A stretch of 43,912 nucleotides of DNA from Opitutia bacterium (GCA_050506795.1 JBJHCF010000044.1:1-43912), one strand, 5' to 3'. Positions 4,651 through 43,912 are shown, counted from the first letter of the stretch. A program made the numbers and translations. Notes: generated by a model not told the origin, from the letters alone.

Positions 4651-5571
4651 TTATGGCGTCCAGTCCAGGGCGATGTCTTTCCAACGGCTTTGGTGGGTTA
4701 ATGCGCCGCAGGAGATGAAGGTCAGGCCCAGGCGGCCCAGTTCCGGAAGGCTTTCCAGGGTGACCCCGCCGCTGGCCTCGGTGGCGCACTGGTCGCCGAT
4801 AAGGGTCAGGGCCTGACGGAGGTGGTCGAGGGAAAAGTTGTCCAGGAGGATCACGTCCGGTTTCGCCGGCAGCAGCGGCGGAATCTGTTGCAGGGAGTCC
4901 ACTTCCACTTCGATAGGCAAACCGGGATTGTCCCGGGCGATTTCGGCCACAAAGCGCGCCAGCTGTTCGCCGGTGACCGCCCGGCCCGCCGCCAGGTGGT
5001 TGTCCTTGATCATGACGCGGTCGAATAATCCGATCCGGTGATTCCAGCCTCCCCCGCGGGCGACCGCGTATTTTTCCAGGACCCGGAAGCCCGGTGTCGT
5101 TTTGCGGGTGTCGAGGAGCCGGGTGGATGAACCTTCGAGGGCCGCGACGAAAGAGGCGGTGTGGGTGGCGATTCCCGAAAGGTGCTGCAGGAAGTTCAGC
5201 ATGACCCGTTCCGCGGTCAACAGATCGGCGCGTTGCCCTCGCAATTCGGCCAGGGTCGTGCCCGCCGTCACGGAATCGCCGTCGGAGACTCGCGGTGCCA
5301 CCTGCGCCTCGCTGCCGTAGGCGGAGAGAATCAGCGGCAGCAGCGGCAACCCGCAAGCGATCAGGTTTTCGCGCGCCACGATTCGAGCCACCCCTTCGCC
5401 GGCGTTCCTCAGCCCGCGGCTGCTGGGATCCCCCGTGACCGCGGGCGGATGGCCAAGACCGGCGCCGGTCAGATCCTCGTCCCGGGCTCGGGCGATCAAA
5501 TCGGTCAAAAACGCCTCATCCAGGTCCTCCCAGCCAATGCGCCGGGCCAAACGTTCATGTGTTGCCATCAT
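4651..5571 (-). CDS. nadC: Nicotinate-nucleotide diphosphorylase (quinolinate phosphoribosyltransferase)
   Basis: AERVMLNFLQHLSGIAT, LDTRKTTPG, HRIGLFDRVMIKDNH, EVEVDS, ILLDN, EASGGV; start set at ATG 5571 to avoid overlap with the LacI gene. Confidence 0.95.
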   Translation of the reverse strand: MMATHERLARRIGWEDLDEAFLTDLIARARDEDLTGAGLGHPPAVTGDPSSRGLRNAGEGVARIVARENLIACGLPLLPLILSAYGSEAQVAPRVSDGDSVTAGTTLAELRGQRADLLTAERVMLNFLQHLSGIATHTASFVAALEGSSTRLLDTRKTTPGFRVLEKYAVARGGGWNHRIGLFDRVMIKDNHLAAGRAVTGEQLARFVAEIARDNPGLPIEVEVDSLQQIPPLLPAKPDVILLDNFSLDHLRQALTLIGDQCATEASGGVTLESLPELGRLGLTFISCGALTHQSRWKDIALDWTP

Positions 5572-24950: not shown

Positions 24951-26798
24951 ATGTGTGGAATTGTAGGATATGTGGGCAGGGCGCAAGCGGGTCCGATTCT
25001 TCTCGACGGATTAAAACGTCTGGAATACCGGGGCTATGATTCGGCCGGATTGACGGTGCATCAGAAGAATCGTTTGGCGTGTGTCAAAGCGACCGGTCCG
25101 GTGACCAACCTGGTCAAGGAAACGGGTCGGCGGGATGTTGGCGGCTCGGTTGGCATCAGCCACACCCGCTGGGCGACCCATGGAGGGGTGACCACCGCGA
25201 ATACCCACCCGCACCTGAGCAGAGACGGCACACTGGCTTTGGTGCATAACGGCGTCATCGAGAATTTCGAGAGCATCAAGAGGTTTTTGCTTGGCAAAGA
25301 CTTCACCTTTTCCTCGGAGACCGATTCCGAGGTCCTGGTGAATCTCATCAGTTATCACTACGAAAAGGAAAGGTGCGAGCCGGAGAAGCGTTTCTTCGAG
25401 AGCGTCCGGAAGGCCCTTCTGCACGTGGAAGGAACGTATGGAATCGCGGTCATGTGTGTCCATAATCCGAAAGAGATCATCGGAGCCCGCTTGGGATCCC
25501 CGCTAATTTTGGGGGTTGGCGACGGGGAGTTTCTGCTGGCCAGCGACGTTTCCGCAGTGGTTTCCCGGACCCATAAGGTGGTGTATCTCAAGGATAACGA
25601 GGTGGTGTCTCTCTCCTCCGAAGGGTTTTCGATTTCCACGATCAACCGGGAGGAAGTGGATCCCATCGTCAACGAGGTCGACTGGGCGATCGAGGATTCC
25701 GAACTCGGTATTCACCAGCACTACATGGAAAAGGAGATTTTCGAACAGCCGCGTTCCTTGGAGAACTCGATGCGCGGCCGTTTCACCGACGACGACAGTT
25801 CGGCGAATTTCGGCGGTTTGAATCTTTCGCCCCAGGAATGGCGCGGAGTGGACCGCATTCTCTTCTGCGGCTGCGGAACCGCCTGGCACGCCTGCCTGGT
25901 GGCGGAGTATCTGATTGAAAGGTTTGCCCGTGTTCCGGTGGAGGTGGAGTACGCTTCAGAGTTTCGCTACCGGAACGCGCCGTTGGACAAGAACACCCTG
26001 TTTTTCGCCATCAGTCAGTCCGGAGAAACCATCGATACGCTGGCGGCCATGCGGGAGGCCAAACGCAAAGGTTACCGAACCCTGGCGATCACCAACGTCG
26101 TGGGTTCCACCATCGCGCGTGAAGCGGATGGCGGGATCTACCAGCACGTCGGCCCCGAGATCGGGGTGGCATCCACCAAGGCGTTCACTTCCCAAATCCT
26201 TTTGGCCGCCATGGTGGCGCTTTACCTGGGCCGTCTGAGAGACGTCAGCTACACGGACGGTCGCACGATCGCCAGGGCCCTCCGGCAACTCCCCGAACTG
26301 GCCGAGCGGGTCCTGGAACAGAGCGATGCGATCCGTGAGATCGCGCGTCGTTACGTCGATTACGAGGATATGCTTTTCCTGGGGCGTCAGGCCATGTTCC
26401 CGATTGCCCTGGAGGGAGCGCTGAAGCTAAAGGAGATTTCCTACATCCACGCCGAGGGGTATCCGGCGGCGGAAATGAAACATGGTCCGATCGCCCTGAT
26501 CAGCGAAAAATGTCCCAGTGTGTTTCTTTCGCCGCAATGCGAGACCTTTCACAAGGTCGTTTCCAACATGCAGGAAATCAAGGCGCGCAAAGGCAAGGTG
26601 ATCGCTGTGGCTTCCGACAGTTGCGAGTTTCCGGACGGCCTGGTGGACGACCTGATTCGAGTGCCCGATGCGCATGAAGCCCTTCAGCCGATTCTCTTCA
26701 CTTTGCCGGTTCAGTTGCTCAGCTACTACATTGCCGTCGAGCGCGGCTGCAATGTCGACAAACCGCGAAACCTGGCCAAGTCGGTGACAGTGGAATAA
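24951..26798 (+). CDS. glmS: Glutamine--fructose-6-phosphate transaminase
   Basis: MCGIVG, RLEYRGYDSAG, HTRWATHG, SQSGET, VASTKAFTSQ, EGALKLKEISY, DKPRNLAKSVTVE. Confidence 0.98.
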   Translation: MCGIVGYVGRAQAGPILLDGLKRLEYRGYDSAGLTVHQKNRLACVKATGPVTNLVKETGRRDVGGSVGISHTRWATHGGVTTANTHPHLSRDGTLALVHNGVIENFESIKRFLLGKDFTFSSETDSEVLVNLISYHYEKERCEPEKRFFESVRKALLHVEGTYGIAVMCVHNPKEIIGARLGSPLILGVGDGEFLLASDVSAVVSRTHKVVYLKDNEVVSLSSEGFSISTINREEVDPIVNEVDWAIEDSELGIHQHYMEKEIFEQPRSLENSMRGRFTDDDSSANFGGLNLSPQEWRGVDRILFCGCGTAWHACLVAEYLIERFARVPVEVEYASEFRYRNAPLDKNTLFFAISQSGETIDTLAAMREAKRKGYRTLAITNVVGSTIAREADGGIYQHVGPEIGVASTKAFTSQILLAAMVALYLGRLRDVSYTDGRTIARALRQLPELAERVLEQSDAIREIARRYVDYEDMLFLGRQAMFPIALEGALKLKEISYIHAEGYPAAEMKHGPIALISEKCPSVFLSPQCETFHKVVSNMQEIKARKGKVIAVASDSCEFPDGLVDDLIRVPDAHEALQPILFTLPVQLLSYYIAVERGCNVDKPRNLAKSVTVE

Positions 26799-33725: not shown

Positions 33726-34412
33726 TCAAGCGGAGGCGTTGTTATGAAAAACTCCCTCCCGCTGTACCCAGTGAACGGCGAACTGAATCAACTCCGTGGA
33801 GTGCTTGAGGTTGAGTTTTTCTTTTATCCTGAACCGGTGGGCTTCCACCGTTTTCAGACGGATATTCATTATCGCCGCGATCTCCCGGTTGTTTTTGCCG
33901 TTTCCGATCAACTGGATTACCTGTAACTCCCGATTGGTAAGTTTGCGAATCGGGTTTCTGATTGGCGGGGTCGGGCTGCTGCTGTCCAGTTGCGAGAAAA
34001 GCAGGCTCTGCAGGCGGCTGCTCACATAGAATTCCCCGCCAAGTACCTTGCGTATCGCTTTGAGGATCTGACCGGGATCCTCGGTTTTCATAAGATACCC
34101 TCTGGCTCCCGATTGCAACGCCCGCTCCGCGTAAAAAGACTCGTCATGCATGGAGAACACCAGAACCGGAGTGCCGGTGAAACGCTGCTGCAGTTGCTTC
34201 AAGGCTTCGAAACCATCGGAGCTTTTTAAGTGGATATCCAGGATAAAGAGGTCGGGCGGCCCCGCGCGGAGGCTGTCGGGCAGTGCATCGGTGGATTCCG
34301 CGCTGCCTGAGACAACGAGGTCCCCCGCTTTTTCTATAAGGGCGGTTAACCCCGCCACTAAAACGGGATGGTCATCGATAATAAAGATTTGGGCTGGGTG
34401 AGATTTCTTCAC
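33726..34412 (-). CDS. NarL/LuxR-family response regulator
   Basis: IIDDHP, ILDIHL, LTNRELQVIQLIGNG...KTVEAHRFRIKEKL. Confidence 0.93.
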   Translation of the reverse strand: MKKSHPAQIFIIDDHPVLVAGLTALIEKAGDLVVSGSAESTDALPDSLRAGPPDLFILDIHLKSSDGFEALKQLQQRFTGTPVLVFSMHDESFYAERALQSGARGYLMKTEDPGQILKAIRKVLGGEFYVSSRLQSLLFSQLDSSSPTPPIRNPIRKLTNRELQVIQLIGNGKNNREIAAIMNIRLKTVEAHRFRIKEKLNLKHSTELIQFAVHWVQREGVFHNNASA

Positions 34413-34509
34413 AGCGGTGTTTTAGATCGTGAAGGATACAATAAAATCGGTGGCGGACGCAATAAGGTCTGACCCTACGATAATCTTACTTTTAAACCCC
34501 TGCTGCGTA

Positions 34510-34597
34510 TAAGGGAAAACCGTATCCGGAGTATGGAAAACCGGATAGATTGACGGAGGTGAACCCAGAGAAAGACCCTGAATTGCCGGAAATCCCC
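34510..34597. promoter_or_regulatory. Phased direct repeats upstream of a NarL gene (putative regulator boxes)
   Basis: GGAAAACCG at 34514 and 34535 (21-bp spacing), related GGTGAACCC at 34558 and GGAAATCCC at 34588. Confidence 0.5.
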
Positions 34598-34668
34598 GCA
34601 ATTCACTTGCCAAAGGAGCGTCGCCTCGAGCGGGCGCCGCCCCGATTTCTTCCCTGAACGCGGCCTGA

Positions 34669-35334
34669 TTAACGATTTACCGCGTTCTCCTGTTCCACCC
34701 ACTGAACGCAAAACTGAACCAGCTCGGTCGCGTTTTTCAGGTCCAGCTTTTCTTTGAGGTGTGCGCGGTGGGATTCGATTGTCTTGATGCTCACGTTGAG
34801 GGTTTTAGCGATCTCCCGGGTGGTGCGTCCGCGTCCGATCAATTGCACCACCTCCAGTTCCCGATCGCTCAATCGATCAATTGGAGAGGTTTCCGTGGGG
34901 GAGTAACCCCGGACGATCTGCTGCAGCATTTGGCTGCCAACCCGCTCGCTGACGTAGATCTCGCCTTTGAGTATTTTGCGGATGGCCTGCATGACGCGTT
35001 CGGCGGCTTCCTGCTTCATGACATACGCCTTGGCGCCGGCCCGAAGCACGCGCTGAGCATAAATATTCTCGTCGTGCATCGACAGAACCAGAATCGGCAG
35101 GTCGGGGTAAAGCACCTTCACGTTCTTGATTAACTCAATTCCGCTGCTTCCGCGAAGCGACATGTCCGCGATCACCAGATCAGGGGAGGTCTTGTCAATG
35201 CCGGTGAGGGCGCCAGGGGCGTCTTCCGCTTCGCCGCAGACGGTAAGGTCATCCTCCCCGTTAACCAGATCCGTCAGGCCGCGCCGCATGAGGGCGTGGT
35301 CGTCTACGATGAATATCTTGGTTTTCCGTTTCAA
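34669..35334 (-). CDS. NarL/LuxR-family response regulator
   Basis: IVDDHA, IADMSL, LSDRELEVVQLIGRG...KTIESHRAHLKEKL; TTG start with AGGAG RBS. Confidence 0.93.
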   Translation of the reverse strand: MKRKTKIFIVDDHALMRRGLTDLVNGEDDLTVCGEAEDAPGALTGIDKTSPDLVIADMSLRGSSGIELIKNVKVLYPDLPILVLSMHDENIYAQRVLRAGAKAYVMKQEAAERVMQAIRKILKGEIYVSERVGSQMLQQIVRGYSPTETSPIDRLSDRELEVVQLIGRGRTTREIAKTLNVSIKTIESHRAHLKEKLDLKNATELVQFCVQWVEQENAVNR

Positions 35335-35372
35335 TGGATTTCGCTCCTTGCTGCTGGAATGATCACCCGGTT

Positions 35373-36434
35373 TCAGGGATTGGAAAAAGTGCAGGCTACG
35401 ATGGCGCCGCCTCGCGGGCCGTTACTTAGGTCCAAAGTGCCGCCGAATTGACGGCATCGGTGCTTCATGAGCCGGATTCCCAATCCGTCGCTCGTTGCTG
35501 GGCGATCGGGAAAGCCCCGGCCGTTATCCTCGATGCTGATGCGGCAGAGAAATGCGTTTTCGCGGGCAAGGGTCAGGGTCAACTGCGTTGCGCCTCCGTG
35601 GCGAATGGCGTTGCGAATGGCTTCCTGACACAACCGAAAGAGATGTTTGCGGGTCTCCGATGACGTTACCTCGATGGAATTATCAATATGGCGGTGACAG
35701 GCCACACCCTGATTTGTTTCGATCTCACGCAGAAGTTTTTCGAGGCACGAGATCAGGTCCGAGTCATCCAATTGCAGTGGTGACAAATTGTGCGACATCA
35801 CTCGCACGCGGGAAAGAGCTTCGTTGATCTGATGGGTGATTTCGGCGGCGGATTCGGCGGACTCAGGCGAAATGTGGGCCAGCTGTTTCTCAAGAATCTT
35901 CGACATGCAGGCGATTCCAGCGAGATTCTGACAGAAATCGTCGTGGAGATCCTGACCGATGCGTTCCCGCTCGAAATTGCTGATGCGTACGATTTCCTCG
36001 CTCAGCAACTGCTCGCGACTGACGTCCATAAAAAGGCCGCAAATGACGGTGTCGCCCGATTCGGTGCGAACATGACTGATTTCGTCGATCCACACCTGGG
36101 AACCGTCGGCCGCGCGTATCCGGTAACGGTGTTGGTGGAATCCAGGTTCCAGGAACCTTCCGCGATGTTGGGCCAGGAACCCACTGTGGTCCTCATGACA
36201 CACCAAATCCTCCCAAAAACCGGCCGTTTTCCAGTCCTCTTGAGAGTAACCGAGCCAGGATTCGATCTCCGGCTGGATGGACACCATGTGTCTTCTGTCG
36301 CTGCTGGATCGCCACGAAACCACTCGCGTATTACGCGCGAAAAATTCACCCAGGGCCCGCCAGGCTTCATCTTCGACCGGGGAGGACAGATCAGGGACGG
36401 AGAGTTGAAGTCCGCTGTAAGAGCCCATTTTCAT
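35373..36434 (-). CDS. Cytoplasmic PAS-domain histidine kinase (HisKA_3 type)
   Basis: PAS-like N-terminus (YRIRAADGSQVWI), ERERIGQDLHDDFCQNL, QEAIRNAIRHG, EDNGRGF, GLGIRLM. Confidence 0.92.
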   Translation of the reverse strand: MKMGSYSGLQLSVPDLSSPVEDEAWRALGEFFARNTRVVSWRSSSDRRHMVSIQPEIESWLGYSQEDWKTAGFWEDLVCHEDHSGFLAQHRGRFLEPGFHQHRYRIRAADGSQVWIDEISHVRTESGDTVICGLFMDVSREQLLSEEIVRISNFERERIGQDLHDDFCQNLAGIACMSKILEKQLAHISPESAESAAEITHQINEALSRVRVMSHNLSPLQLDDSDLISCLEKLLREIETNQGVACHRHIDNSIEVTSSETRKHLFRLCQEAIRNAIRHGGATQLTLTLARENAFLCRISIEDNGRGFPDRPATSDGLGIRLMKHRCRQFGGTLDLSNGPRGGAIVACTFSNP

Positions 36435-36882: not shown

Positions 36883-36927
36883 GGAGCCGGCGATGGGACT
36901 CGAACCCGCAACCTACTGATTACAAAT
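36883..36927 (-). other. att site: 3' half of tRNA-Thr(TGT)
   Basis: Minus strand ATTTGTAATCAGTAGGTTGCGGGTTCGAGTCCCATCGCCGGCTCC (anticodon loop to 3' end); no D-arm or 5' acceptor strand; 94 bp from the integrase start. Confidence 0.88.
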
Positions 36928-36989
36928 TTGTGTCTGTACGGTTTTACCGTGTTGTGTTAAATTGCGCTTAATCACCTAAAAACGGTTGT

Positions 36990-37078
36990 TATCAAGGTAT
37001 TAACGAAAGCGAGGCAACGACATGACACAACACGACAAAACACCGCTAAACTCAAAAAGTGGCCAAGAAGTGGCCAAG
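36990..37078 (+). promoter_or_regulatory. att arm: IHF consensus site and tandem integrase arm-type repeats
   Basis: TATCAAGGTATTA (36990-37002) matches WATCAANNNNTTR; AAGTGGCCAAG x2 in tandem (37057-37078). Confidence 0.65.
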
Positions 37079-38374
37079 CGGAGCAACCTACAGACTCGCA
37101 AACGGGCGGCATCGAAGTATTCCGCCGAGTACTGGCGGGACCGGATCGTCCGCCCGACATACTCCAAGGACGGGAAAAAGGGGCAGGTGCAGCAGTGGCA
37201 CGCCAGAATCCAGGCGGCCGGCCGTCGCCAGTGGGTGGGGCTGAACACGAACAACCGGGAGGAAGCCGCCCGCACCGCCGCCCGACTCTATGGGGAGATC
37301 ACGGCGAAGGGATGGGACGCGGCGATTGCCGCATTCAACCCCGACAAGGTGAAAAAAGCTGAGGTCGAGACCGTGGGGGAATTCCTCCGGGCGGTCGAGG
37401 AATCGGCCGACACGCTTTCACCCCGGACCCTGTACGGCTACACCAGTTCATTCCGTTGGCTGGTGGCCGCCGTCTTCGGCATCGAGGGGGACAAATCCCG
37501 ATTTGATTACCGGAAGGGCGGAAACGACCGCTGGCGGGCGAAGATCGACGGGAAAAAGCTGTCGGACCTGACCCCGCAGAAAATCGAGCATGCCCTGTCG
37601 AAATTCATCACGAAGGCGGGGGCGTCGCCCGTTGACCAGAATAAGGCGAAGCGATCCGCCGCCAGTGTCGCCCGTCAGGCGAGGGCGCTGTTCTCCCGGA
37701 AGATGCTCCGCCGGTTGCCCTTCGATCACGTGCCGAACCCGTTCCAGGGCGTCGAGATCGAGGGCGCGAAAGTCCGCAAGTACGTAGGGACCATGAACGC
37801 GGAAAAGCTGTTTGCCGATGCCAGGGGCGAACTGGACGGCGAAGCGTACAAGGCGTTTCTGCTCGCCCTGGGGACCGGACTGAGGCGCAAGGAAATCGAC
37901 AACCTGCAATGGCAGCAGATCGACGCGGAGAAGAGTGTGATCCGCATTCGGACGACCGAGGATTTCGGGGCCAAGACCGAGGACAGCGAGGACCAGGTTT
38001 TCGTCGACCCCGGCCTAGTGTCCGAACTGATGAGGTTTCGGGAAAGCGCAACGGGGCTTTTCGTCCTGGAAGGCGGGGAATCCCGGCCTAACGCGAAATA
38101 CGCATATTACCGGGCAAACGATGCGTTCAAGAGGTTTATCACGTGGCTTCGGGTCAAGGGCGTCATGGACAATAAGCCGATTCACACCTTGCGGAAGGAA
38201 TTCGGGTCCATGATCGCCGCGACCTCCGACATTCACACCGCCAGCCGCCAGCTTAGGCATTCCAACATTCAGACCGCCGCCAGCTACTACCTGGACCACC
38301 GGCGAAAGGTTTCGCCCCCGATTGGGGACTGGATGGGAAAATCCGAGGAAGCGAACACGGAGGCCGGGTCATGA
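37022..38374 (+). CDS. int: Tyrosine recombinase / phage integrase
   Basis: TGLRRKEI (Arg), GAKT (Lys), HTLR (HxxR), LRHSNIQTAASYY (His, Tyr). Confidence 0.93.
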   Translation: MTQHDKTPLNSKSGQEVAKRSNLQTRKRAASKYSAEYWRDRIVRPTYSKDGKKGQVQQWHARIQAAGRRQWVGLNTNNREEAARTAARLYGEITAKGWDAAIAAFNPDKVKKAEVETVGEFLRAVEESADTLSPRTLYGYTSSFRWLVAAVFGIEGDKSRFDYRKGGNDRWRAKIDGKKLSDLTPQKIEHALSKFITKAGASPVDQNKAKRSAASVARQARALFSRKMLRRLPFDHVPNPFQGVEIEGAKVRKYVGTMNAEKLFADARGELDGEAYKAFLLALGTGLRRKEIDNLQWQQIDAEKSVIRIRTTEDFGAKTEDSEDQVFVDPGLVSELMRFRESATGLFVLEGGESRPNAKYAYYRANDAFKRFITWLRVKGVMDNKPIHTLRKEFGSMIAATSDIHTASRQLRHSNIQTAASYYLDHRRKVSPPIGDWMGKSEEANTEAGS

Positions 38375-38982
38375 GCCAGAAATTCAAGAAAACCTTTGGC
38401 CTGACGGTCCTTCACCGGGCGTTCAGCTTTCAGGTTATGGCGATTCACGGAGAACGTGGCGAGATCGCCAAGGGGACGGGCGAGCTTGACGTTCACGTGG
38501 TGCCACTGCCGGAGGTTCCCGCGATCAAGGGCCTGGAACAATACGAGAGAGGGCCGGAGACCGCCCCGAGGGCTGAGACGAAGGCAGCTCGGGAGAGGGC
38601 CGTTTTCGGGCATTTCTTCAAGGACTCATGGAAAGCCTACCGGGCCGGCGACCGCGACACCGCCGAACGTGAATTCAAGATCGAATGGGCGGCGGTTATG
38701 GGCGGGGAGATCCCTTGGCCGGGCCTTGACCTGGATGAACTGCTAAGACGCCGTAGGGCGGCACTCAAGCGCCGTCACGATGCCTTCCGCCGTAGGTACG
38801 TGTTGACGGCTTTATGGGATGGGGTCATCAGTCACATGGACCCGGCCGAGCGCACGGAATTCATGCGGCCGCATTCAGGGCAGATCGACGAACTCGCCCG
38901 GGCCATTCACCGGGACATCGAAGACCTTGCTTTACCCCGTACCCCGGGACGGTTTTCGCTCACACTCCGCAAGTGTAAGTAA
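38371..38982 (+). CDS. Hypothetical protein of the element
   Basis: 203-aa ORF, ATGA overlap with the int stop; no recognised motif. Confidence 0.6.
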   Translation: MSQKFKKTFGLTVLHRAFSFQVMAIHGERGEIAKGTGELDVHVVPLPEVPAIKGLEQYERGPETAPRAETKAARERAVFGHFFKDSWKAYRAGDRDTAEREFKIEWAAVMGGEIPWPGLDLDELLRRRRAALKRRHDAFRRRYVLTALWDGVISHMDPAERTEFMRPHSGQIDELARAIHRDIEDLALPRTPGRFSLTLRKCK

Positions 38983-38984
38983 AC

Positions 38985-39025
38985 CGCCGATACGGTAAAA
39001 ATTCGTGTACACGAAAACGCCGATA
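38985..39025. promoter_or_regulatory. Putative operator upstream of the xis-primase-helicase operon
   Basis: Perfect palindrome TTCGTGTACACGAA (39002-39015) flanked by CGCCGATA direct repeats (38985, 39018). Confidence 0.55.
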
Positions 39026-39059
39026 GACGGGGCGACGGTTGCGCATTTGGTTCAATTCC

Positions 39060-39263
39060 ATGAGCGCAACCACCGAAACACCTTCTTTCACGCGACCGCT
39101 GACGGTCGAGGAACTGGCGGAGATCCTTCAATACAACCGCGAGTCTGTTAGGCGGGCGATCCGCCAGGGCAGAATCAAGACAATCCTGATCGGGCGATCC
39201 CATCGAATCCCGGCCGATGAGGTGGCGAGAATTCTCAACGACGGTCTTCCTTCGACCCGATGA
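39060..39263 (+). CDS. Excisionase-like HTH_17 DNA-binding protein
   Basis: LTVEELAEILQYNRESVRRAIRQGRIKTILIGRSHRIP. Confidence 0.88.
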   Translation: MSATTETPSFTRPLTVEELAEILQYNRESVRRAIRQGRIKTILIGRSHRIPADEVARILNDGLPSTR

Positions 39264-40285
39264 GCGCCCCGCCCCAAAAGGTACGGCCCGCCTCTGGTGG
39301 AAGCGAGCCGCGAAAAGAAACCAGTCAAGGGCGAACCATGACACCGACGCGGGGCGAAGTCAAGTTAGACGTGGCCCGCCTTGAGAACGTCCGCGACCGT
39401 GGCAACAAGATTGAGTCCGCTTGCCCAGCTTGTCGGGAAGAGGGCCGCGACCGTACCGGCAATCACCTCGTCATATATCAGGATGGCCGATTCGGTTGTG
39501 TCGCCAACCCGGAAGATCACGAACACCGAAAACGGATCTGGCAGCTTGCAGGCGGGGCCGGAACGAATCCGGGTGACTACTTACCCGCCGTACCGCTTCC
39601 GAAACCTCCTGAGCCTTTACAGGCGCATTCATGGCCGGATCTGGAGCCCGGGACCGATAAGGATCTGCGGCGGCTGTCGAACCTTCGGGGAATAGGCGTC
39701 GAAGGTCTACGGCTTGCCCGGGACAGGGGGATTCTTCATTTCTTCGATCACGCCATGAACGGGCGGTCCTGGGCTGTCTCTGATTCCTCGCGACACGTCC
39801 GGCAGGATCGGCGAATCGAGGGGCAACCGTTCATCCTCGCAGACAGCACACCAGCGAAATCCCGAACGATGGGCAAGCCATGCTGGCCGGTGGGCGCATC
39901 GGAGATCGAGGGATTCGAGAACGTCCTTTTCTGCGAAGGCGGACCCGACCTGCTCGCGGCCCATCACCTCATTTATTGCGATGACAGGCAGAAGGACACC
40001 GCCGCCGTTGCAATGCTGGGCGCCGGGCAGCCGATTCACCAAGACGCAATCGAGCGATTCCGGGGCACGCGTGTCCGGTTTTTCATGCACACCGACCGGG
40101 GCGGGCGCAAAGGCGTCCGGCAGTGGTGGAAGGCGGTTCAATCCGTCGCGTCGAAAGTGGATGCATACGATTTTCAGGGCCTCAAAAAACTGACCGGCGA
40201 ACCTGTAAACGACCTAAACGACTTCCTGCACGTTGACGTAGATCAGTGGGAAGAAATCGAACACGTAAGGGATCCACTTCCATGA
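39260..40285 (+). CDS. DNA primase (Zn-binding N-terminus + TOPRIM domain)
   Basis: CPAC...H...C zinc motif; VLFCEGGPDLLA, HTDRGG, NDLND. Confidence 0.8.
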   Translation: MSAPPQKVRPASGGSEPRKETSQGRTMTPTRGEVKLDVARLENVRDRGNKIESACPACREEGRDRTGNHLVIYQDGRFGCVANPEDHEHRKRIWQLAGGAGTNPGDYLPAVPLPKPPEPLQAHSWPDLEPGTDKDLRRLSNLRGIGVEGLRLARDRGILHFFDHAMNGRSWAVSDSSRHVRQDRRIEGQPFILADSTPAKSRTMGKPCWPVGASEIEGFENVLFCEGGPDLLAAHHLIYCDDRQKDTAAVAMLGAGQPIHQDAIERFRGTRVRFFMHTDRGGRKGVRQWWKAVQSVASKVDAYDFQGLKKLTGEPVNDLNDFLHVDVDQWEEIEHVRDPLP

Positions 40286-41313
40286 GCGGAATCGTTGAAG
40301 ACATTAAAGAGATCCGGGAGGACCAGGAGCAGGGCAGCAATTCCCGATTCCCGCCGATTGTGGCCTGGGACAACTTTCACGCCGAAGATTTGCCGGAACC
40401 TCCGGTCTTGATCGAGGGCGTTCTCCACCAGGGCAACAAGCTCGCCATCGGGGGCGGAAGCAAGTCCTTCAAAACTTGGACCTTGATCGACCTCGCGTTC
40501 TCCGTGGCGACCGGGACGCCGTGGCTTGGATGGAATACCGTCGCAGGCAAGGTGCTTTACCTCAACCTGGAGTTGCAGGCATTTTCCTTTCGCCGCAGAT
40601 GCGATGCAGTCCGGGGGGCGAAGGAGATCAAGGATTCCGTTCCCAACCTTCACCTATGGAATCTAAGGGGGCATGCTGCGGATATTGCAGGGCTGGTGCC
40701 CGTGTTTCTCGATCAGATGAAGGGCCAGGGGTTTGCACTGGTGATTATCGACCCGGTTTACAAGGTGCTGGGCAAGCGCAACGAATCAGCGCCGGGAGAT
40801 ATTGCCGATCTGCTCAACCACGTTGAAAAACTGGCGGTCCAGTCCGGGGCGGCGGTCGCATTCGGGGCGCACTTCAGCAAGGGAAACCAGGCGAGCAAAG
40901 ACGCTATGGACCGGATCAGTGGGGCCGGGACGTTTGCCCGCGATCCCGACGCCATTCTGACGATGACCAAACACGAGGAGGAGGCCTGTTTCACCATCGA
41001 AGCGACCCTCAGAGATTTCCCGCCGGCAGACAGTTTTGTGGTGGGATGGGATTTTCCACTGATGCGTCGTCGTGGGGAGCTGAATCCTGAAAAACTGAAG
41101 AAACCTAAGAATGGTCGTGAACGGGCGTTCGAGGTGCAAGACGCGGTGAATATCCTTCGCCACCAGGCAATGACCACCAGCGAATGGCAACGGGCCTGCA
41201 ACGATGAACTGGGTATGTCGAAAAGCGTATTCTATGACACATACAAACCGGAAGCGGTCCGTCGCGGAATGGTGCAACAAGTCACTGGGAAATGGATTCC
41301 ACAAGCGAAATAG
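40282..41313 (+). CDS. RepA/AAA_25-type replicative helicase
   Basis: Walker A GGSKSFKT, VLYLNLE, Walker B LVIIDP, HFSKG, ISGAG; ATGA overlap with the primase. Confidence 0.88.
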   Translation: MSGIVEDIKEIREDQEQGSNSRFPPIVAWDNFHAEDLPEPPVLIEGVLHQGNKLAIGGGSKSFKTWTLIDLAFSVATGTPWLGWNTVAGKVLYLNLELQAFSFRRRCDAVRGAKEIKDSVPNLHLWNLRGHAADIAGLVPVFLDQMKGQGFALVIIDPVYKVLGKRNESAPGDIADLLNHVEKLAVQSGAAVAFGAHFSKGNQASKDAMDRISGAGTFARDPDAILTMTKHEEEACFTIEATLRDFPPADSFVVGWDFPLMRRRGELNPEKLKKPKNGRERAFEVQDAVNILRHQAMTTSEWQRACNDELGMSKSVFYDTYKPEAVRRGMVQQVTGKWIPQAK

Positions 41314-41443
41314 TCCGGAAAGTCCGGGAAGTCCGGAAAACGGTTTTCGGACCTTCCGGACTGGGTTCGGTTTGGTCCGGTCCGGAATATAAAGATTCCG
41401 GACCAACCGGACCAACCGCACCGAAACCCTATTGGTCCGGAAA
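41312..41443. repeat. Iteron-like repeat cluster, putative replication origin
   Basis: AGTCCGG(A/G)A x3 in tandem (41312-41338), inverted TTCCGGACT (41354-62), GGTCCGGAAT-ATAAAG-ATTCCGGACC palindrome (41379-41404), further CCGGACCAA copies. Confidence 0.75.
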
Positions 41444-41458
41444 TGAAAGGGTAACGAC

Positions 41459-41671
41459 ATGACAGCACGACACCATAACGGCATGACCCATTCCGCATTT
41501 GAAAGAAAATGCGCCCGGTTGGAAAGCTTCGGGCAAAGACTGGAAGCCAAGCGAGCGGTTCGGTTCGCCAAACTCTGCGAGCGTTCCAAGGAGCTTGTCG
41601 CGTGGGGAATCGACCAAGGCCTTTTGCAGTATCCAACCAACCAGGACAACAACACAACGAAAGGGAACTGA
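41459..41671 (+). CDS. Small hypothetical protein
   Basis: 70-aa ORF with AAGGG upstream; its stop overlaps the next ATG. Confidence 0.5.
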   Translation: MTARHHNGMTHSAFERKCARLESFGQRLEAKRAVRFAKLCERSKELVAWGIDQGLLQYPTNQDNNTTKGN

Positions 41672-41985
41672 TGAGGAAGAACGATAGACTCGAACAAGCC
41701 GCGAACGTCATGGCCGATGCCGACAAAGCTGGCGTTAAAATCGCACTGGACCGCAACGGCGAAATCCTGTTCACCGGGGATGCGTCGCTCCGGGAGCAAT
41801 TCAAGCGCCGTATCGAGAACCGGGAGCGGGAGATTGCGACTCTGATTTTGCGTGGCGCTGTCATCTGTAGGACGAAACAGGGGCTCCTGGATATCGTCGA
41901 CGTGGGAGCGATGTTTTACGACGCCAAGGCGATCACCGATGGCGACGAAGGCAAGCGCAACACGCCACCGGGAGCGGCATCATGA
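41671..41985 (+). CDS. Hypothetical protein (104 aa)
   Basis: MRKNDRLEQ... with AAGGGA RBS and TGATG overlap; AGVKIALDRNGEILF loosely resembles TubC_N-like small domains. Confidence 0.55.
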   Translation: MRKNDRLEQAANVMADADKAGVKIALDRNGEILFTGDASLREQFKRRIENREREIATLILRGAVICRTKQGLLDIVDVGAMFYDAKAITDGDEGKRNTPPGAAS

Positions 41986-42122
41986 CCCCCCCGGGGCTTA
42001 TTGCTCCAAGCTACCTTGCGGACCTTCGATTTTAAGAGGTTCACCCCACCTGCGGGAGCAAACTGCATTCCTATCCTTTTCCGAAAATGGGCAAACAGAT
42101 ACAAACCGTATACGATAGAAAA

Positions 42123-42578
42123 ATGAGCACAAACAGAACGATAACAGTGACCGCGACCGACTTGACCCGGTGCGGATTCTCCCGGGACAGGGTGCGCGAC
42201 GCACTTCTGACCGTTCCTCCCGTCAGCACTCAGGGGCGGGTCAAATACTTCGACTTACAGCAGGCAATCGCCGCCGTCATCAACACCGGCGAATCGCCGA
42301 AGGACCGCGAGGCCCGGTTGAAAGCCGACATCATGGAGGAAAAGCTCCGTCGCATGAAAGGCGAGTCAATCGACCGTGAAACAACCATATGCGTCTGGGG
42401 CGACAAGATGGTCAGGATGCGATACGTCATTCAGGGGTGTGAATCGCTTTCCAAAAAGGACCAGGTGCGACTGGCAAACGCCATCCGGCTGGAGTGTAAC
42501 CGGATTCCCGACGAAATCGAGTCAGCCCAATTTCCAGAAGCCAACCCAGAAAATGAGGAGGATCATAACGATGAGTAA
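42123..42578 (+). CDS. Terminase small subunit-like protein (lambda Nu1 / DUF1441-like)
   Basis: N-terminal wHTH-like region (YFDLQQAIAA) then REARLKADIMEEKLRRMKGESIDRE coiled coil typical of Nu1-like TerS; start 42123 or 42087. Confidence 0.65.
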   Translation: MSTNRTITVTATDLTRCGFSRDRVRDALLTVPPVSTQGRVKYFDLQQAIAAVINTGESPKDREARLKADIMEEKLRRMKGESIDRETTICVWGDKMVRMRYVIQGCESLSKKDQVRLANAIRLECNRIPDEIESAQFPEANPENEEDHNDE

Positions 42579-42753
42579 GACCACCATGACGAAACAGCAG
42601 CAACTTGACGTTTGGCGAACCTGCACCTGCGAGGATATCGCGTTGCCGGAGCTGGAAAAAGAATGTAAGGAGATACCGAATACGGATCTTGACAATCCGC
42701 AACACGTATCCGATGTTTCAGGACATCGACACCGCCGTCGACCCGCCACATGA
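42571..42753 (+). CDS. Small hypothetical protein (60 aa)
   Basis: GAGGAGG RBS, overlaps both flanking genes. Confidence 0.5.
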   Translation: MSKTTMTKQQQLDVWRTCTCEDIALPELEKECKEIPNTDLDNPQHVSDVSGHRHRRRPAT

Positions 42754-43912
42754 AGCACAAACCTAAACACCGCCGATTCGATGTTCAGATCACGCGCTCC
42801 GACCAGGACACGCGAGAAATCGAACTCTCTTTTAGCTCCGAGTATCCTTTCGACCGTGGCGGGGACATCGGCCTTGAGGTGCTCTCCCATGACGAAGGGG
42901 CGGTCGATCTGACCCGGCTGAATAGTGGGGCTGTCGTTTTATGGGACCACAACCGCGACAAAGTTTTGGGCAGCGTCACGAAAGCCTGGGTCGACTCAAA
43001 GGACCGCCGAGGAAGGGCAAAGATTCGTTTCGGAACATCGAAGTTTGCACGTCAGATTTTCGAGGACGTCCGGGCCGGTATCATTCAGCTTGCCAGCGTG
43101 GGGTACGAGATTCTTGACGCCGTGAAAACCCGAACCGGCATCCTGGCCACAAAATGGGCCCCCCACGAAATTTCCATCGTTCCGATTCCCGTCGATCCGA
43201 CAGTGGGCATCGGACGATCCAAACCGCCATCACACAAATCACATAGGAATACTACAATGAATGACACGTTAGAACTCAAACGATTGGAGTCCATCCAAGA
43301 CGCACTTACGCTTATCAACAAGCGCAAGCTCCATATCCCGGACGACGCACTTACCCGGGCAAAATCCGAATCCTGGGACGGGAATCAACTCGCTAAATAC
43401 GTCTTGGGCAATCAACCCGATCACGGCGGAGGCCAAGACCTGAGAGCACTCGAAGAAATCCAGACCTCCAGCAAACGTGGTTTCTCGCTTTGCCGAGCAC
43501 TGGCCGGTGCCATGTCCCGCGATGGGGTCCGGGGCTTCGAGCGCGAAGTAATTGACGAATTCCAGAAACGGTCTGGCTCCCGATCCAACGACGGCGGCCT
43601 GGTGATTCCTTATAGCGCATTGAACACCCGATCCATGCTGGCCGGTGACTTTGCGGCGGGCGGAAGTTTCGTGCCGACTGAAAAGGGCAACTTGATCGAA
43701 AAGCTCGATCCCGTTCCCGTTCTCGAACGCGCTGGCGCAACCGTCATCCGTGGCCTGGGCGCACCCGTATCTTTCCCGAAACACGAAACCGGCGCGACGG
43801 TTCACTGGTTGGCTGAAGGTGCCGAGGTGCCGGAGTCGACACCCGGAACCGGCGACGTCATGGGCACTCCGCATCGGGTCTCCGCTTACACGGAGATTTC
43901 ACGGCAACTGGT
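42750..43912 (+). CDS. HK97-type prohead protease-major capsid protein fusion (3' truncated by window; absent from ORF track)
   Basis: Open frame from ATG 42750 to the window end: SFSSEYP, LWDHN, ASVGY, PHEISIVPIPVDP (protease His/Ser/Glu), then GGSFVP, FPK, WLAEG, AYTEISRQL (HK97-fold capsid). Confidence 0.88.
   Translation, partial: MKHKPKHRRFDVQITRSDQDTREIELSFSSEYPFDRGGDIGLEVLSHDEGAVDLTRLNSGAVVLWDHNRDKVLGSVTKAWVDSKDRRGRAKIRFGTSKFARQIFEDVRAGIIQLASVGYEILDAVKTRTGILATKWAPHEISIVPIPVDPTVGIGRSKPPSHKSHRNTTMNDTLELKRLESIQDALTLINKRKLHIPDDALTRAKSESWDGNQLAKYVLGNQPDHGGGQDLRALEEIQTSSKRGFSLCRALAGAMSRDGVRGFEREVIDEFQKRSGSRSNDGGLVIPYSALNTRSMLAGDFAAGGSFVPTEKGNLIEKLDPVPVLERAGATVIRGLGAPVSFPKHETGATVHWLAEGAEVPESTPGTGDVMGTPHRVSAYTEISRQL

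Follow-up and report, generated by a model that had tools for sequence, protein, structure and literature searches.

The window analyzed here is a complete contig of 43,912 nt from an Opitutia bacterium (GCA_050506795.1, JBJHCF010000044.1:1-43912), the last 7 kb of which, from position 36,883 to the contig end, carry a compact element with the gene content of a phage satellite. From its left end the element consists of a displaced fragment of a tRNA-Thr gene, a tyrosine integrase, an orphan open reading frame (ORF), a small helix-turn-helix (HTH) protein, a primase-like protein, a replicative helicase, a cluster of short repeats, a conserved small ORF, a small terminase subunit (TerS) and a prohead protease fused to a major capsid protein (MCP), inside which the contig stops, leaving the right end of the element beyond it. 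All genes from the integrase to the capsid protein are on the + strand within these 7 kb (Table 1). A sequence-only reading of this DNA had described these features as a satellite resembling the phage-inducible chromosomal islands (PICIs) in the tRNA-Thr gene of a verrucomicrobium, and its calls of the attachment (att) site, the integrase and the hypothetical ORF after it, the excisionase, the helicase, the repeats (as a putative origin) and the protease-capsid gene were upheld by the searches summarized in Table 1; other calls had to be narrowed, as set out below. The host was placed as that reading had proposed: the closest named relatives of the GlmS protein encoded at 24951-26798 (NCBIfam glmS 2.3e-229), at 68-72% identity, are from Opitutales, Opitutaceae metagenome-assembled genomes (MAGs) and Coraliomargarita parva, and Opitutales is part of Verrucomicrobiota. 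Judged by this protein, the host of the element is an Opitutales-type verrucomicrobium.

Table 1. Features of the satellite-like element, in window coordinates, with the matches on which each call is based.
Feature	Coordinates	Strand	Evidence
attL core, displaced 45-nt 3′ fragment of tRNA-Thr(UGU), anticodon loop to 3′ end	36883..36927	-	45/45 identity to L001 tRNA-Thr
Tyrosine integrase (int), 450 aa	37022..38374	+	Pfam Phage_integrase 2.7e-11; phrog_1 2.8e-32
Tandem AAGTGGCCAAG x2, putative arm-type recombinase-binding site within 5′ end of int	37057..37078	+	repeat search
Orphan ORF hyp203, 203 aa	38371..38982	+	no family match
HTH_17 DNA-binding protein, AlpA/excisionase-like, 74 aa	39039..39263	+	Pfam HTH_17 3.5e-11; phrog_66 9e-7
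Primase-like protein, DnaG/Toprim-like C-terminal part, 341 aa	39260..40285	+	phrog_239 4e-5; PADLOC DnaG-like domain 1.2e-6
AAA_25 / RepA-DnaB-like replicative helicase, 355 aa	40246..41313	+	AAA_25 2.1e-26; phrog_2597 5.6e-57; RSF1010 RepA 1g8y 5.6e-4
Iteron-like cluster, 9 GTCCGG copies in both orientations, putative replication origin	41313..41440	.	site counts
orf70, conserved small ORF, 70 aa	41459..41671	+	57% identity to L001 210-377
TerS, small terminase subunit, longest ORF 163 aa	42087..42578	+	family-level PHROG and hhalign
Fused prohead protease-linker-HK97-type major capsid protein, first 387 aa, cut by contig end	42750..43912	+	phrog_617 8e-60; Peptidase_S78 2.5e-7; Phage_capsid 3.6e-4

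Relatives of the element were collected by searching genome contigs with an alignment of eight capsid sequences as query, which matched 170 stretches, of which 146 were confirmed and 80 loci were kept (best identity 38%). One of these, L001 from an Opitutales MAG, supplied the identity of the att site: read on the minus strand, the 45-nt fragment in the window is the same at 45/45 positions as the intact L001 tRNA-Thr(tgt) gene (L001 coordinates 4803-4847). The identification came only from this alignment, and neither ARAGORN nor Rfam (E up to 1) reported an intact tRNA at the site. Because the displaced 3′ tRNA fragment adjoins an outward-reading integrase, it was taken to be one end of a tRNA-integrated element, with the intact tRNA expected at the opposite end. 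The integrase gene starts 95 nt from the fragment, giving the element an integrase at one end together with a specific att site, as in PICIs, and its product is 48% identical to the integrase of the complete element in another locus, L018. The AAGTGGCCAAG tandem within the 5′ end of int accounts for both matches to this motif in the whole window, where 0.23 were expected and where two were reached in 1 of 100 shuffles. An identical AAGTGGCCAAG tandem lies 46 nt from the 3′ end of tRNA-Thr in L001 and a related one, AAGTGGCGCAG, near both ends of the L018 element, and the motif is best described as a putative arm-type recombinase-binding site. Flanking the interval from the att fragment to the int start codon is an inverted repeat of 17 nt (36941-36957 and 37025-37041; 88% complementary), which may be a regulatory or recombination site. 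The HTH_17 protein, 48% identical to its L018 counterpart, matches excisionase PHROGs and is AlpA/Xis-like, with a predicted role as excisionase or activator; its gene runs in the direction of all other element genes and there is no divergent repressor pair.

L001 starts inside a related element and retains, in the same order as in the window, orf70 (57% identity), TerS (41%) and the capsid gene (38%). Downstream of its capsid gene come an opposite-strand DUF2283/DUF4258 pair, two copies of AAGTGGCCAAG and, after 46 nt, the tRNA-Thr gene on the minus strand, such that the intact tRNA-Thr(UGU) is found only 1.6 kb past the capsid gene. Since the tRNA target is the same and the arm motifs are identical at complementary ends, the right end of L001 is a fair proxy for that of the window element, and the L001 landmarks predict a total length of about 9.3 kb. 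The DUF2283 and DUF4258 genes (L001 3973-4596, minus strand), which we take to be a toxin-antitoxin-like pair, lie between the capsid gene and the att site and are the only recognizable cargo in these elements.

The feature that sets the element apart from ordinary phages is what it lacks around the capsid gene. The TerS and capsid genes are separated by only 171 nt, and local hidden Markov models (HMMs), built from the annotated large terminase (TerL) and portal genes of the loci and run over all 80 loci and the window, matched none of the 307 window ORFs of at least 50 aa, in agreement with the earlier statement that neither a large terminase nor a portal gene lies between the two. By comparison, the portal match ends just upstream of the capsid match in 71 of the 80 loci, which is the ordinary phage arrangement, and in portal-bearing loci TerL is found further upstream wherever the upstream sequence reaches. 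In eight verrucomicrobial loci (L005, L009, L010, L025, L027, L028, L032 and L034), the gene immediately before the capsid gene is that of a portal or head-tail joining protein, and three of them (L009, L010 and L034) have the full order TerS-TerL-portal-capsid followed by connector or tail genes; the phage order is also apparent in L028 and partly in L027. The nine loci with no portal match include the compact L001, L017, L018, L023 and L054, in which the TerL model, which addresses a component that defines capsid-forming PICIs (cfPICIs), was likewise silent. The remainder are L007 and L046, where less than 1.1 kb of upstream sequence makes the absence of a match uninformative, L033, which has TerL fragments and no portal, and L065, which has a separate 217-aa protease.

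The gene order of an ordinary tailed prophage was not encountered in the window, where the capsid gene follows TerS after 171 nt. No tail, holin, portal or connector genes were found in its visible 7 kb or in the complete relative L018, and the ORFs 3′ of the capsid gene in L018 and L001 had no PHROG or Pfam match to connectors. The sequence-only reading had named a full set of terL, portal, tail and lysis genes downstream as the observation that would overturn it; no such set follows the capsid gene in L001 or L018, and the window contig itself ends within that gene. As nothing is visible past this contig end, further structural genes could still follow there in an unusual order, which would make the element an ordinary prophage or some larger element. 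We consider this very unlikely, as the portal directly precedes the capsid gene in the great majority of loci (71/80), where here TerS stands 171 nt before it, and as L001, with the same TerS, tRNA target and arm motifs, ends 1.6 kb past its capsid gene.

Three of the compact relatives are complete. That of L018 is bounded by a 68-nt direct repeat (41 nt exact), the copies of which lie 9,786 nt apart, the one on the right being located within tRNA-Arg, and its gene order is int, an ORF of no assigned family, HTH_17, a Toprim-like protein, an AAA_25/DnaB-like helicase, iterons, TerS (phrog_57 2.3e-8) and a protease-capsid fusion of 606 aa, followed by less than 1 kb of sequence with no recognized content; no TerL, portal, connector, tail or lysis match was obtained between the repeats. 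The element of L023 (Akkermansiaceae) is in tRNA-Ala with repeats 8,991 nt apart and that of L054 (Nitrospirales) in tRNA-Leu with repeats 9,090 nt apart, and the replication genes and gene orders of both differ from those of the window. Among the ORFs of the three elements there were integrase, replication and capsid matches, with a TerS match in L018 only, and no TerL, portal, connector or lysis match. The Verrucomicrobiales locus L017 begins, as the window element does, with a tRNA 3′ fragment followed by int, and is cut by the contig end (11092) inside the capsid gene.

Two observations concern the records themselves. The L018 record (CAYHFK010000024.1) is labelled as a Bifidobacterium MAG, yet its int and xis products are 48% identical to those of the window and its capsid gene is sister to a Verrucomicrobiota phage gene, and the contig may be mis-binned. 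In addition, the window and L017 both end inside the capsid gene and the L001 contig begins inside its element, so that assemblies seem to break within these elements, possibly because the sample contains another, related capsid gene or a mixture of integrated and excised forms.

These bounded relatives also bear on the idea that the element is a decayed prophage remnant that has lost its mobility. Small integrase islands with few phage genes are often remnants, and L033, with its TerL fragments and no portal, is a decayed copy of this phage type. A remnant is nonetheless highly improbable here: all eleven listed features are intact and co-directional, the replication genes and adjacent iterons are retained, both att repeats are preserved in three relatives, each in a different tRNA gene, with sizes in a narrow range of 9.0-9.8 kb, and the architecture recurs in at least four capsid lineages.

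The capsid gene itself encodes a prohead protease, a linker and an HK97-type capsid domain in one polypeptide, whose 3′ part is beyond the contig end; full-length relatives of the fusion are 590-690 aa. Six columns of the protease domain (H47, H67, S116, E140, S142 and D149) are invariant in 69/69 sequences, the window included, and two of these, H67 and S116, may be the equivalents of the catalytic His and Ser in HK97 gp4. In a tree of 69 capsid proteins, from which twelve loci with an ORF shorter than 350 aa were left out, the genes of compact elements occupy at least four separate positions, each beside phage genes of the same phylum. The window and L001 proteins are sisters (Shimodaira-Hasegawa-like approximate likelihood ratio test, SH-aLRT, 100) with the protein of the Opitutae phage L027 as sister to the pair (SH-aLRT 96), a placement that is less certain than these values suggest because the branches are long. 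A single clade of satellite capsid genes was rejected, as the tree requires at least four changes of label, and the degree to which the compact-element label does cluster was equalled in only 2 of 500 shuffles. On this tree, the capsid gene would have entered such elements at least four times.

The terminal branches of compact-element capsids are long against a median of 0.16 (L054 0.93, window 0.89, L001 0.65 and L018 0.56), which could reflect faster evolution after capture or sparse sampling. Among the 69 sequences, those of L018, the window and L001 also have the shortest stretch from the protease motif to the capsid domain (86, 89 and 98 aa, respectively, with L012 equalling L001), as compared with 105 aa in L032 and 153 aa in L027, their phage sisters; the linkers of L017, L023 and L054 are not shortened. 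A short linker may be related to head size, for which the sample is too small to say.

The sister relationship to phage capsid genes of the same phylum makes it conceivable that the capsid product of such a satellite does not build its own shell and instead co-assembles with, or poisons, the capsid of a helper phage, redirecting head size or interfering as has been reported for the Ccm protein of SaPIbov5. PICIs with a capsid homologue and no portal are indeed known, Ccm giving small capsids and the MCP homologue of PmCI172 small heads (PMC6092414). We regard co-assembly as unlikely, though by no means negligible, in that the window gene retains all that a self-processing shell requires, namely a linker, a capsid domain and a full protease domain in which every invariant column is kept, and in that it stands on a long terminal branch (0.89) and has low identity to the closest capsid of a phage.

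Recognition of the TerS protein came at the level of its family. The window protein alone matched phrog_141 at 5e-4 only, and the start codon of its relatives corresponds to Met13 (42123) of the window ORF. A HMMER search of 1.84 billion representatives returned 28 proteins at E <=0.001, the query included, which makes this a very small family, and an alignment was made of the window protein and 25 relatives after two multidomain matches (6,004 aa and 630 aa) were omitted. Of these 26 members, 20 matched phrog_141 (best 1.7e-18) and 13 matched phrog_57, and hhalign of the family profile with the TerS of verrucomicrobial phages and L018 gave a probability of 97% (E 1.2e-10, 120 columns). The window and L001 proteins are 43% identical in the MAFFT alignment (41% by tblastn, as above), and no tblastn match was obtained in 50,697 deposited phage genomes. 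The assignment as TerS is accordingly firm at family level. The further specification of the sequence-only reading that it is Nu1-like is unproven, as neither Pfam nor a PDB sequence search gave a match and nothing significant emerged from the fold search described below.

The replication module consists of the primase-like protein and the helicase, followed by the repeats. Of the 57 GTCCGG and 14 GTCCGGA sites of the whole window, 9 and 6, respectively, fall within 128 nt starting from the helicase stop codon. Short repeats of other sequence occupy the equivalent position in L018 and L001, and we infer that the cluster is a putative replication origin. An origin or iterons directly 3′ of the replication gene is a hallmark of PICIs (PMC6092414), and the element has this arrangement, with a strong helicase call and a weak primase call. 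The primase of the sequence-only reading is backed by one PHROG and one PADLOC match, both weak, but Pfam contained nothing similar and the PDB sequence search produced only two chance-level matches (E 0.45 and 0.51).

Several proteins and neighboring genes are less readily interpreted. The orphan hyp203 has no Pfam, PHROG or PADLOC match and no Atlas lead, and a single homologue (56% identity) in a protein database of 5.8 billion clusters. Although orf70 has no Pfam or PHROG family match, it is located upstream of TerS in both the window and L001. The small ORFs proposed earlier fared unequally: orf70 is kept in L001, whereas the second one, which lies past orf70 and ahead of TerS, and the one that separates TerS from the capsid gene showed no convincing conservation with L001 and are putative. 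PADLOC assigned no defence system among 14 unexplained proteins, its sole match being the DnaG-like domain of the primase. Directly to the left of the att fragment is a host gene for a sensor histidine kinase (35373-36434; NCBIfam matches), and two ORFs beside it (region 33726-36434) look, from their translations judged by eye, like LuxR/NarL-type response regulators of the host.

Taken together, these data support, at the level of sequence comparison, the interpretation of the element as a satellite. In our view it is probably a PICI-like satellite of approximately 9.3 kb that was integrated by its tyrosine recombinase into the 3′ half of an Opitutales tRNA-Thr(UGU) gene, and that has its own capsid and TerS and relies on a helper phage for the rest. 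In the cycle that we propose, infection or induction of a helper phage would switch on the rightward operon, via the AlpA-like HTH protein by analogy with Gram-negative PICIs. The integrase and HTH protein would then cut the element out at the core shared with the tRNA gene, with AAGTGGCCAAG serving as arm sites, and the resulting circle would be copied by the primase-like protein and helicase, starting from the iterons that immediately follow the helicase gene. The TerS of the element would recognize satellite DNA and recruit the large terminase of the helper, while the protease-linker-capsid polyprotein would supply the protease, scaffold and shell of satellite-sized heads built on a helper portal, with connectors, tails and lysis also being contributed by the helper. 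Projected capacities are approximately 5 kbp for a T=3 and 10 kbp for a T=4 capsid (PMC13669383), and an element of approximately 9.3 kb would fit the latter. Helper dependence, the roles of the individual proteins, capsid size, own-capsid formation and the right end of this copy are all parts of this scheme that we infer. Candidate helpers, on the basis of the capsid tree, are Opitutae phages such as that of L027, with the capsid gene sister to that of the window.

A number of points weigh against this interpretation. No helper phage was identified, and the contig that gave no TerL or portal match is one from which the right end of the element is missing. Excision and packaging are predicted from the genes, as is, for all of these elements, a shell with no portal of its own. 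The predicted size and the absence of further structural genes come from relatives at 38-57% protein identity. With respect to individual proteins, the primase assignment is weak, and although the AlphaFold model of TerS has a mean predicted local distance difference test score (pLDDT) of 86.7, a Foldseek search of the PDB with its fold gave 0 matches at E <=0.001, the best being 6hn7_B (E 0.28) followed by MerR-type HTH proteins. Lastly, a 526-aa ORF of L023 (12356-13936) matches tape-measure PHROGs (phrog_8462 3e-21) inside its 9.0-kb bounded element, an unexpected find where portal and other tail genes are lacking, and one which means that some members do have tail-like genes; a single tape-measure annotation occurs among published portal-less mini genomes as well (PMC13669383).

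Those mini genomes raise a different possibility, namely that the element is an autonomous, portal-less mini virus of the HK97 fold with non-canonical packaging, as has been considered for genomes of 5-11.6 kb (PMC13669383). They are in the same size class and share with the window element an integrase, an excisionase, a helicase, a capsid with scaffold and the absence of portal and tail. We find this scarcely credible for the window element, since TerS, which has a role only together with a large terminase and portal, is present here, whereas the mini genomes, as their authors describe them, are without terminase. Moreover, the capsid domain belongs to the viral Phage_capsid family and not to the encapsulin families, and replication is of the primase and DnaB/RepA-helicase type, with no rolling-circle Rep among the Pfam and PHROG matches of the element.

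If the satellite interpretation holds for the compact relatives as well, they may represent a distinct and recurrent strategy intermediate between PICIs and cfPICIs, an idea that we put forward tentatively and at somewhat less than even confidence. Under this strategy, a tRNA-integrating replicon of approximately 9 kb would carry one captured protease-scaffold-capsid gene and a TerS from a local phage, form T=4-sized heads on a stolen helper portal and take TerL, connectors, tails and lysis from the helper, and it would have arisen at least four times in Verrucomicrobiota and Nitrospirota. To our knowledge, satellites are known experimentally almost only from Proteobacteria, Firmicutes and Actinobacteria. 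The elements described here would place a well-defined family of capsid-encoding satellites in Verrucomicrobiota and a similarly organized element in Nitrospirota, and would stand midway between two known types, the PICIs, in which helper capsids are reshaped, and the cfPICIs, with an entire head module of their own. They suggest that one fused gene is the minimum for owning a capsid.

Among described satellites, the PICI model of SatelliteFinder has five core components (integrase, AlpA-type protein, replication, terS and a capsid-related gene), and each of them is present here, as judged by the published component description. General PHROG and Pfam scans revealed no resemblance to the hallmark genes of P4-like elements or PLEs, for which no dedicated search was made. 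Gram-negative PICIs with a capsid homologue share with the window element the integrase, AlpA-type HTH protein, primase or replication gene with adjacent origin, terS and capsid-related gene, all rightward (PMC6092414, PMC10085698), and are likewise small, with no divergent repressor pair and no tail or lysis genes. The capsid-related genes described in PICIs include the MCP homologue of PmCI172, which makes small heads, a putative capsid protein in EcCICFT073 and Ccm in SaPIbov5 (PMC6092414). In contrast to a capsid homologue or size-redirecting factor of this kind, the window element has a complete protease-linker-capsid fusion of the phrog_617 type. The window element and its relatives also differ from PICIs in their size of about 9-10 kb and in their host, in that more than 99.9% of the PICIs detected by SatelliteFinder are in Proteobacteria or Firmicutes (PMC10085698) and the window element is in Verrucomicrobiota.

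With cfPICIs such as EcCIEDL933, which have their own capsid protein and prohead protease and use helper tails, the element shares the capsid and protease; in Firmicutes cfPICIs the two are fused, as here, and cfPICI capsid modules were acquired from phages several times (PMC10085698). However, what defines a cfPICI is the presence of TerL, portal, head-tail adaptor and connector, and the group has 11 core components and a median length of 14 kb (PMC10085698), and none of these four was found in the 7 kb of the window or in the complete relatives. The PICI-like tycheposons of Prochlorococcus (bioRxiv 10.1101/2020.12.28.424599) are also small and tRNA-integrating, and they encode a tyrosine recombinase and a packaging gene of viral type along with xis and primase/helicase. 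Compared by description, they carry either terS or MCP, whereas the window element has both, and they are from another host phylum.

Marine virion-encapsidated integrative mobile elements (VEIMEs) are small integrative satellites with an integrase, AlpA, primase/helicase and sometimes TerS, like the window element (PMC9618062). Fourteen virion-packaged VEIMEs were assigned to Verrucomicrobia (PMC9618062, Dataset S5), and the earlier statement that no characterized satellite was known from this phylum has to be toned down; none of the VEIMEs in that table has a capsid annotation. Both "Capsid protein" annotations in Dataset S5 have zero VEIME members, in contrast to the window element with its capsid gene, and VEIMEs are packaged as concatemers in phage particles and not in heads of their own (PMC9618062). 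Among the entries listed by a literature search on phage satellites and Verrucomicrobia, this paper alone looked relevant from its title and the start of its abstract.

The last group for comparison is that of the portal-less mini genomes with HK97-fold capsids (Nat Commun 2026, PMC13669383), which are 5-11.6 kb in length (mean 8.75 kb) and encode an integrase, an excisionase and a helicase along with a capsid and its scaffold, but neither portal nor tail. They are described as having no terminase and encapsulin-like capsid domains, whereas the window element combines TerS with a capsid protein in which a canonical Phage_capsid domain is joined to an S78 protease. A satellite lifestyle is one of the two hypotheses that were offered for these genomes (PMC13669383), and because TerS ties the window element to packaging through a terminase and portal, the portal-less HK97 mini genomes gain from it a satellite explanation that can be tested.

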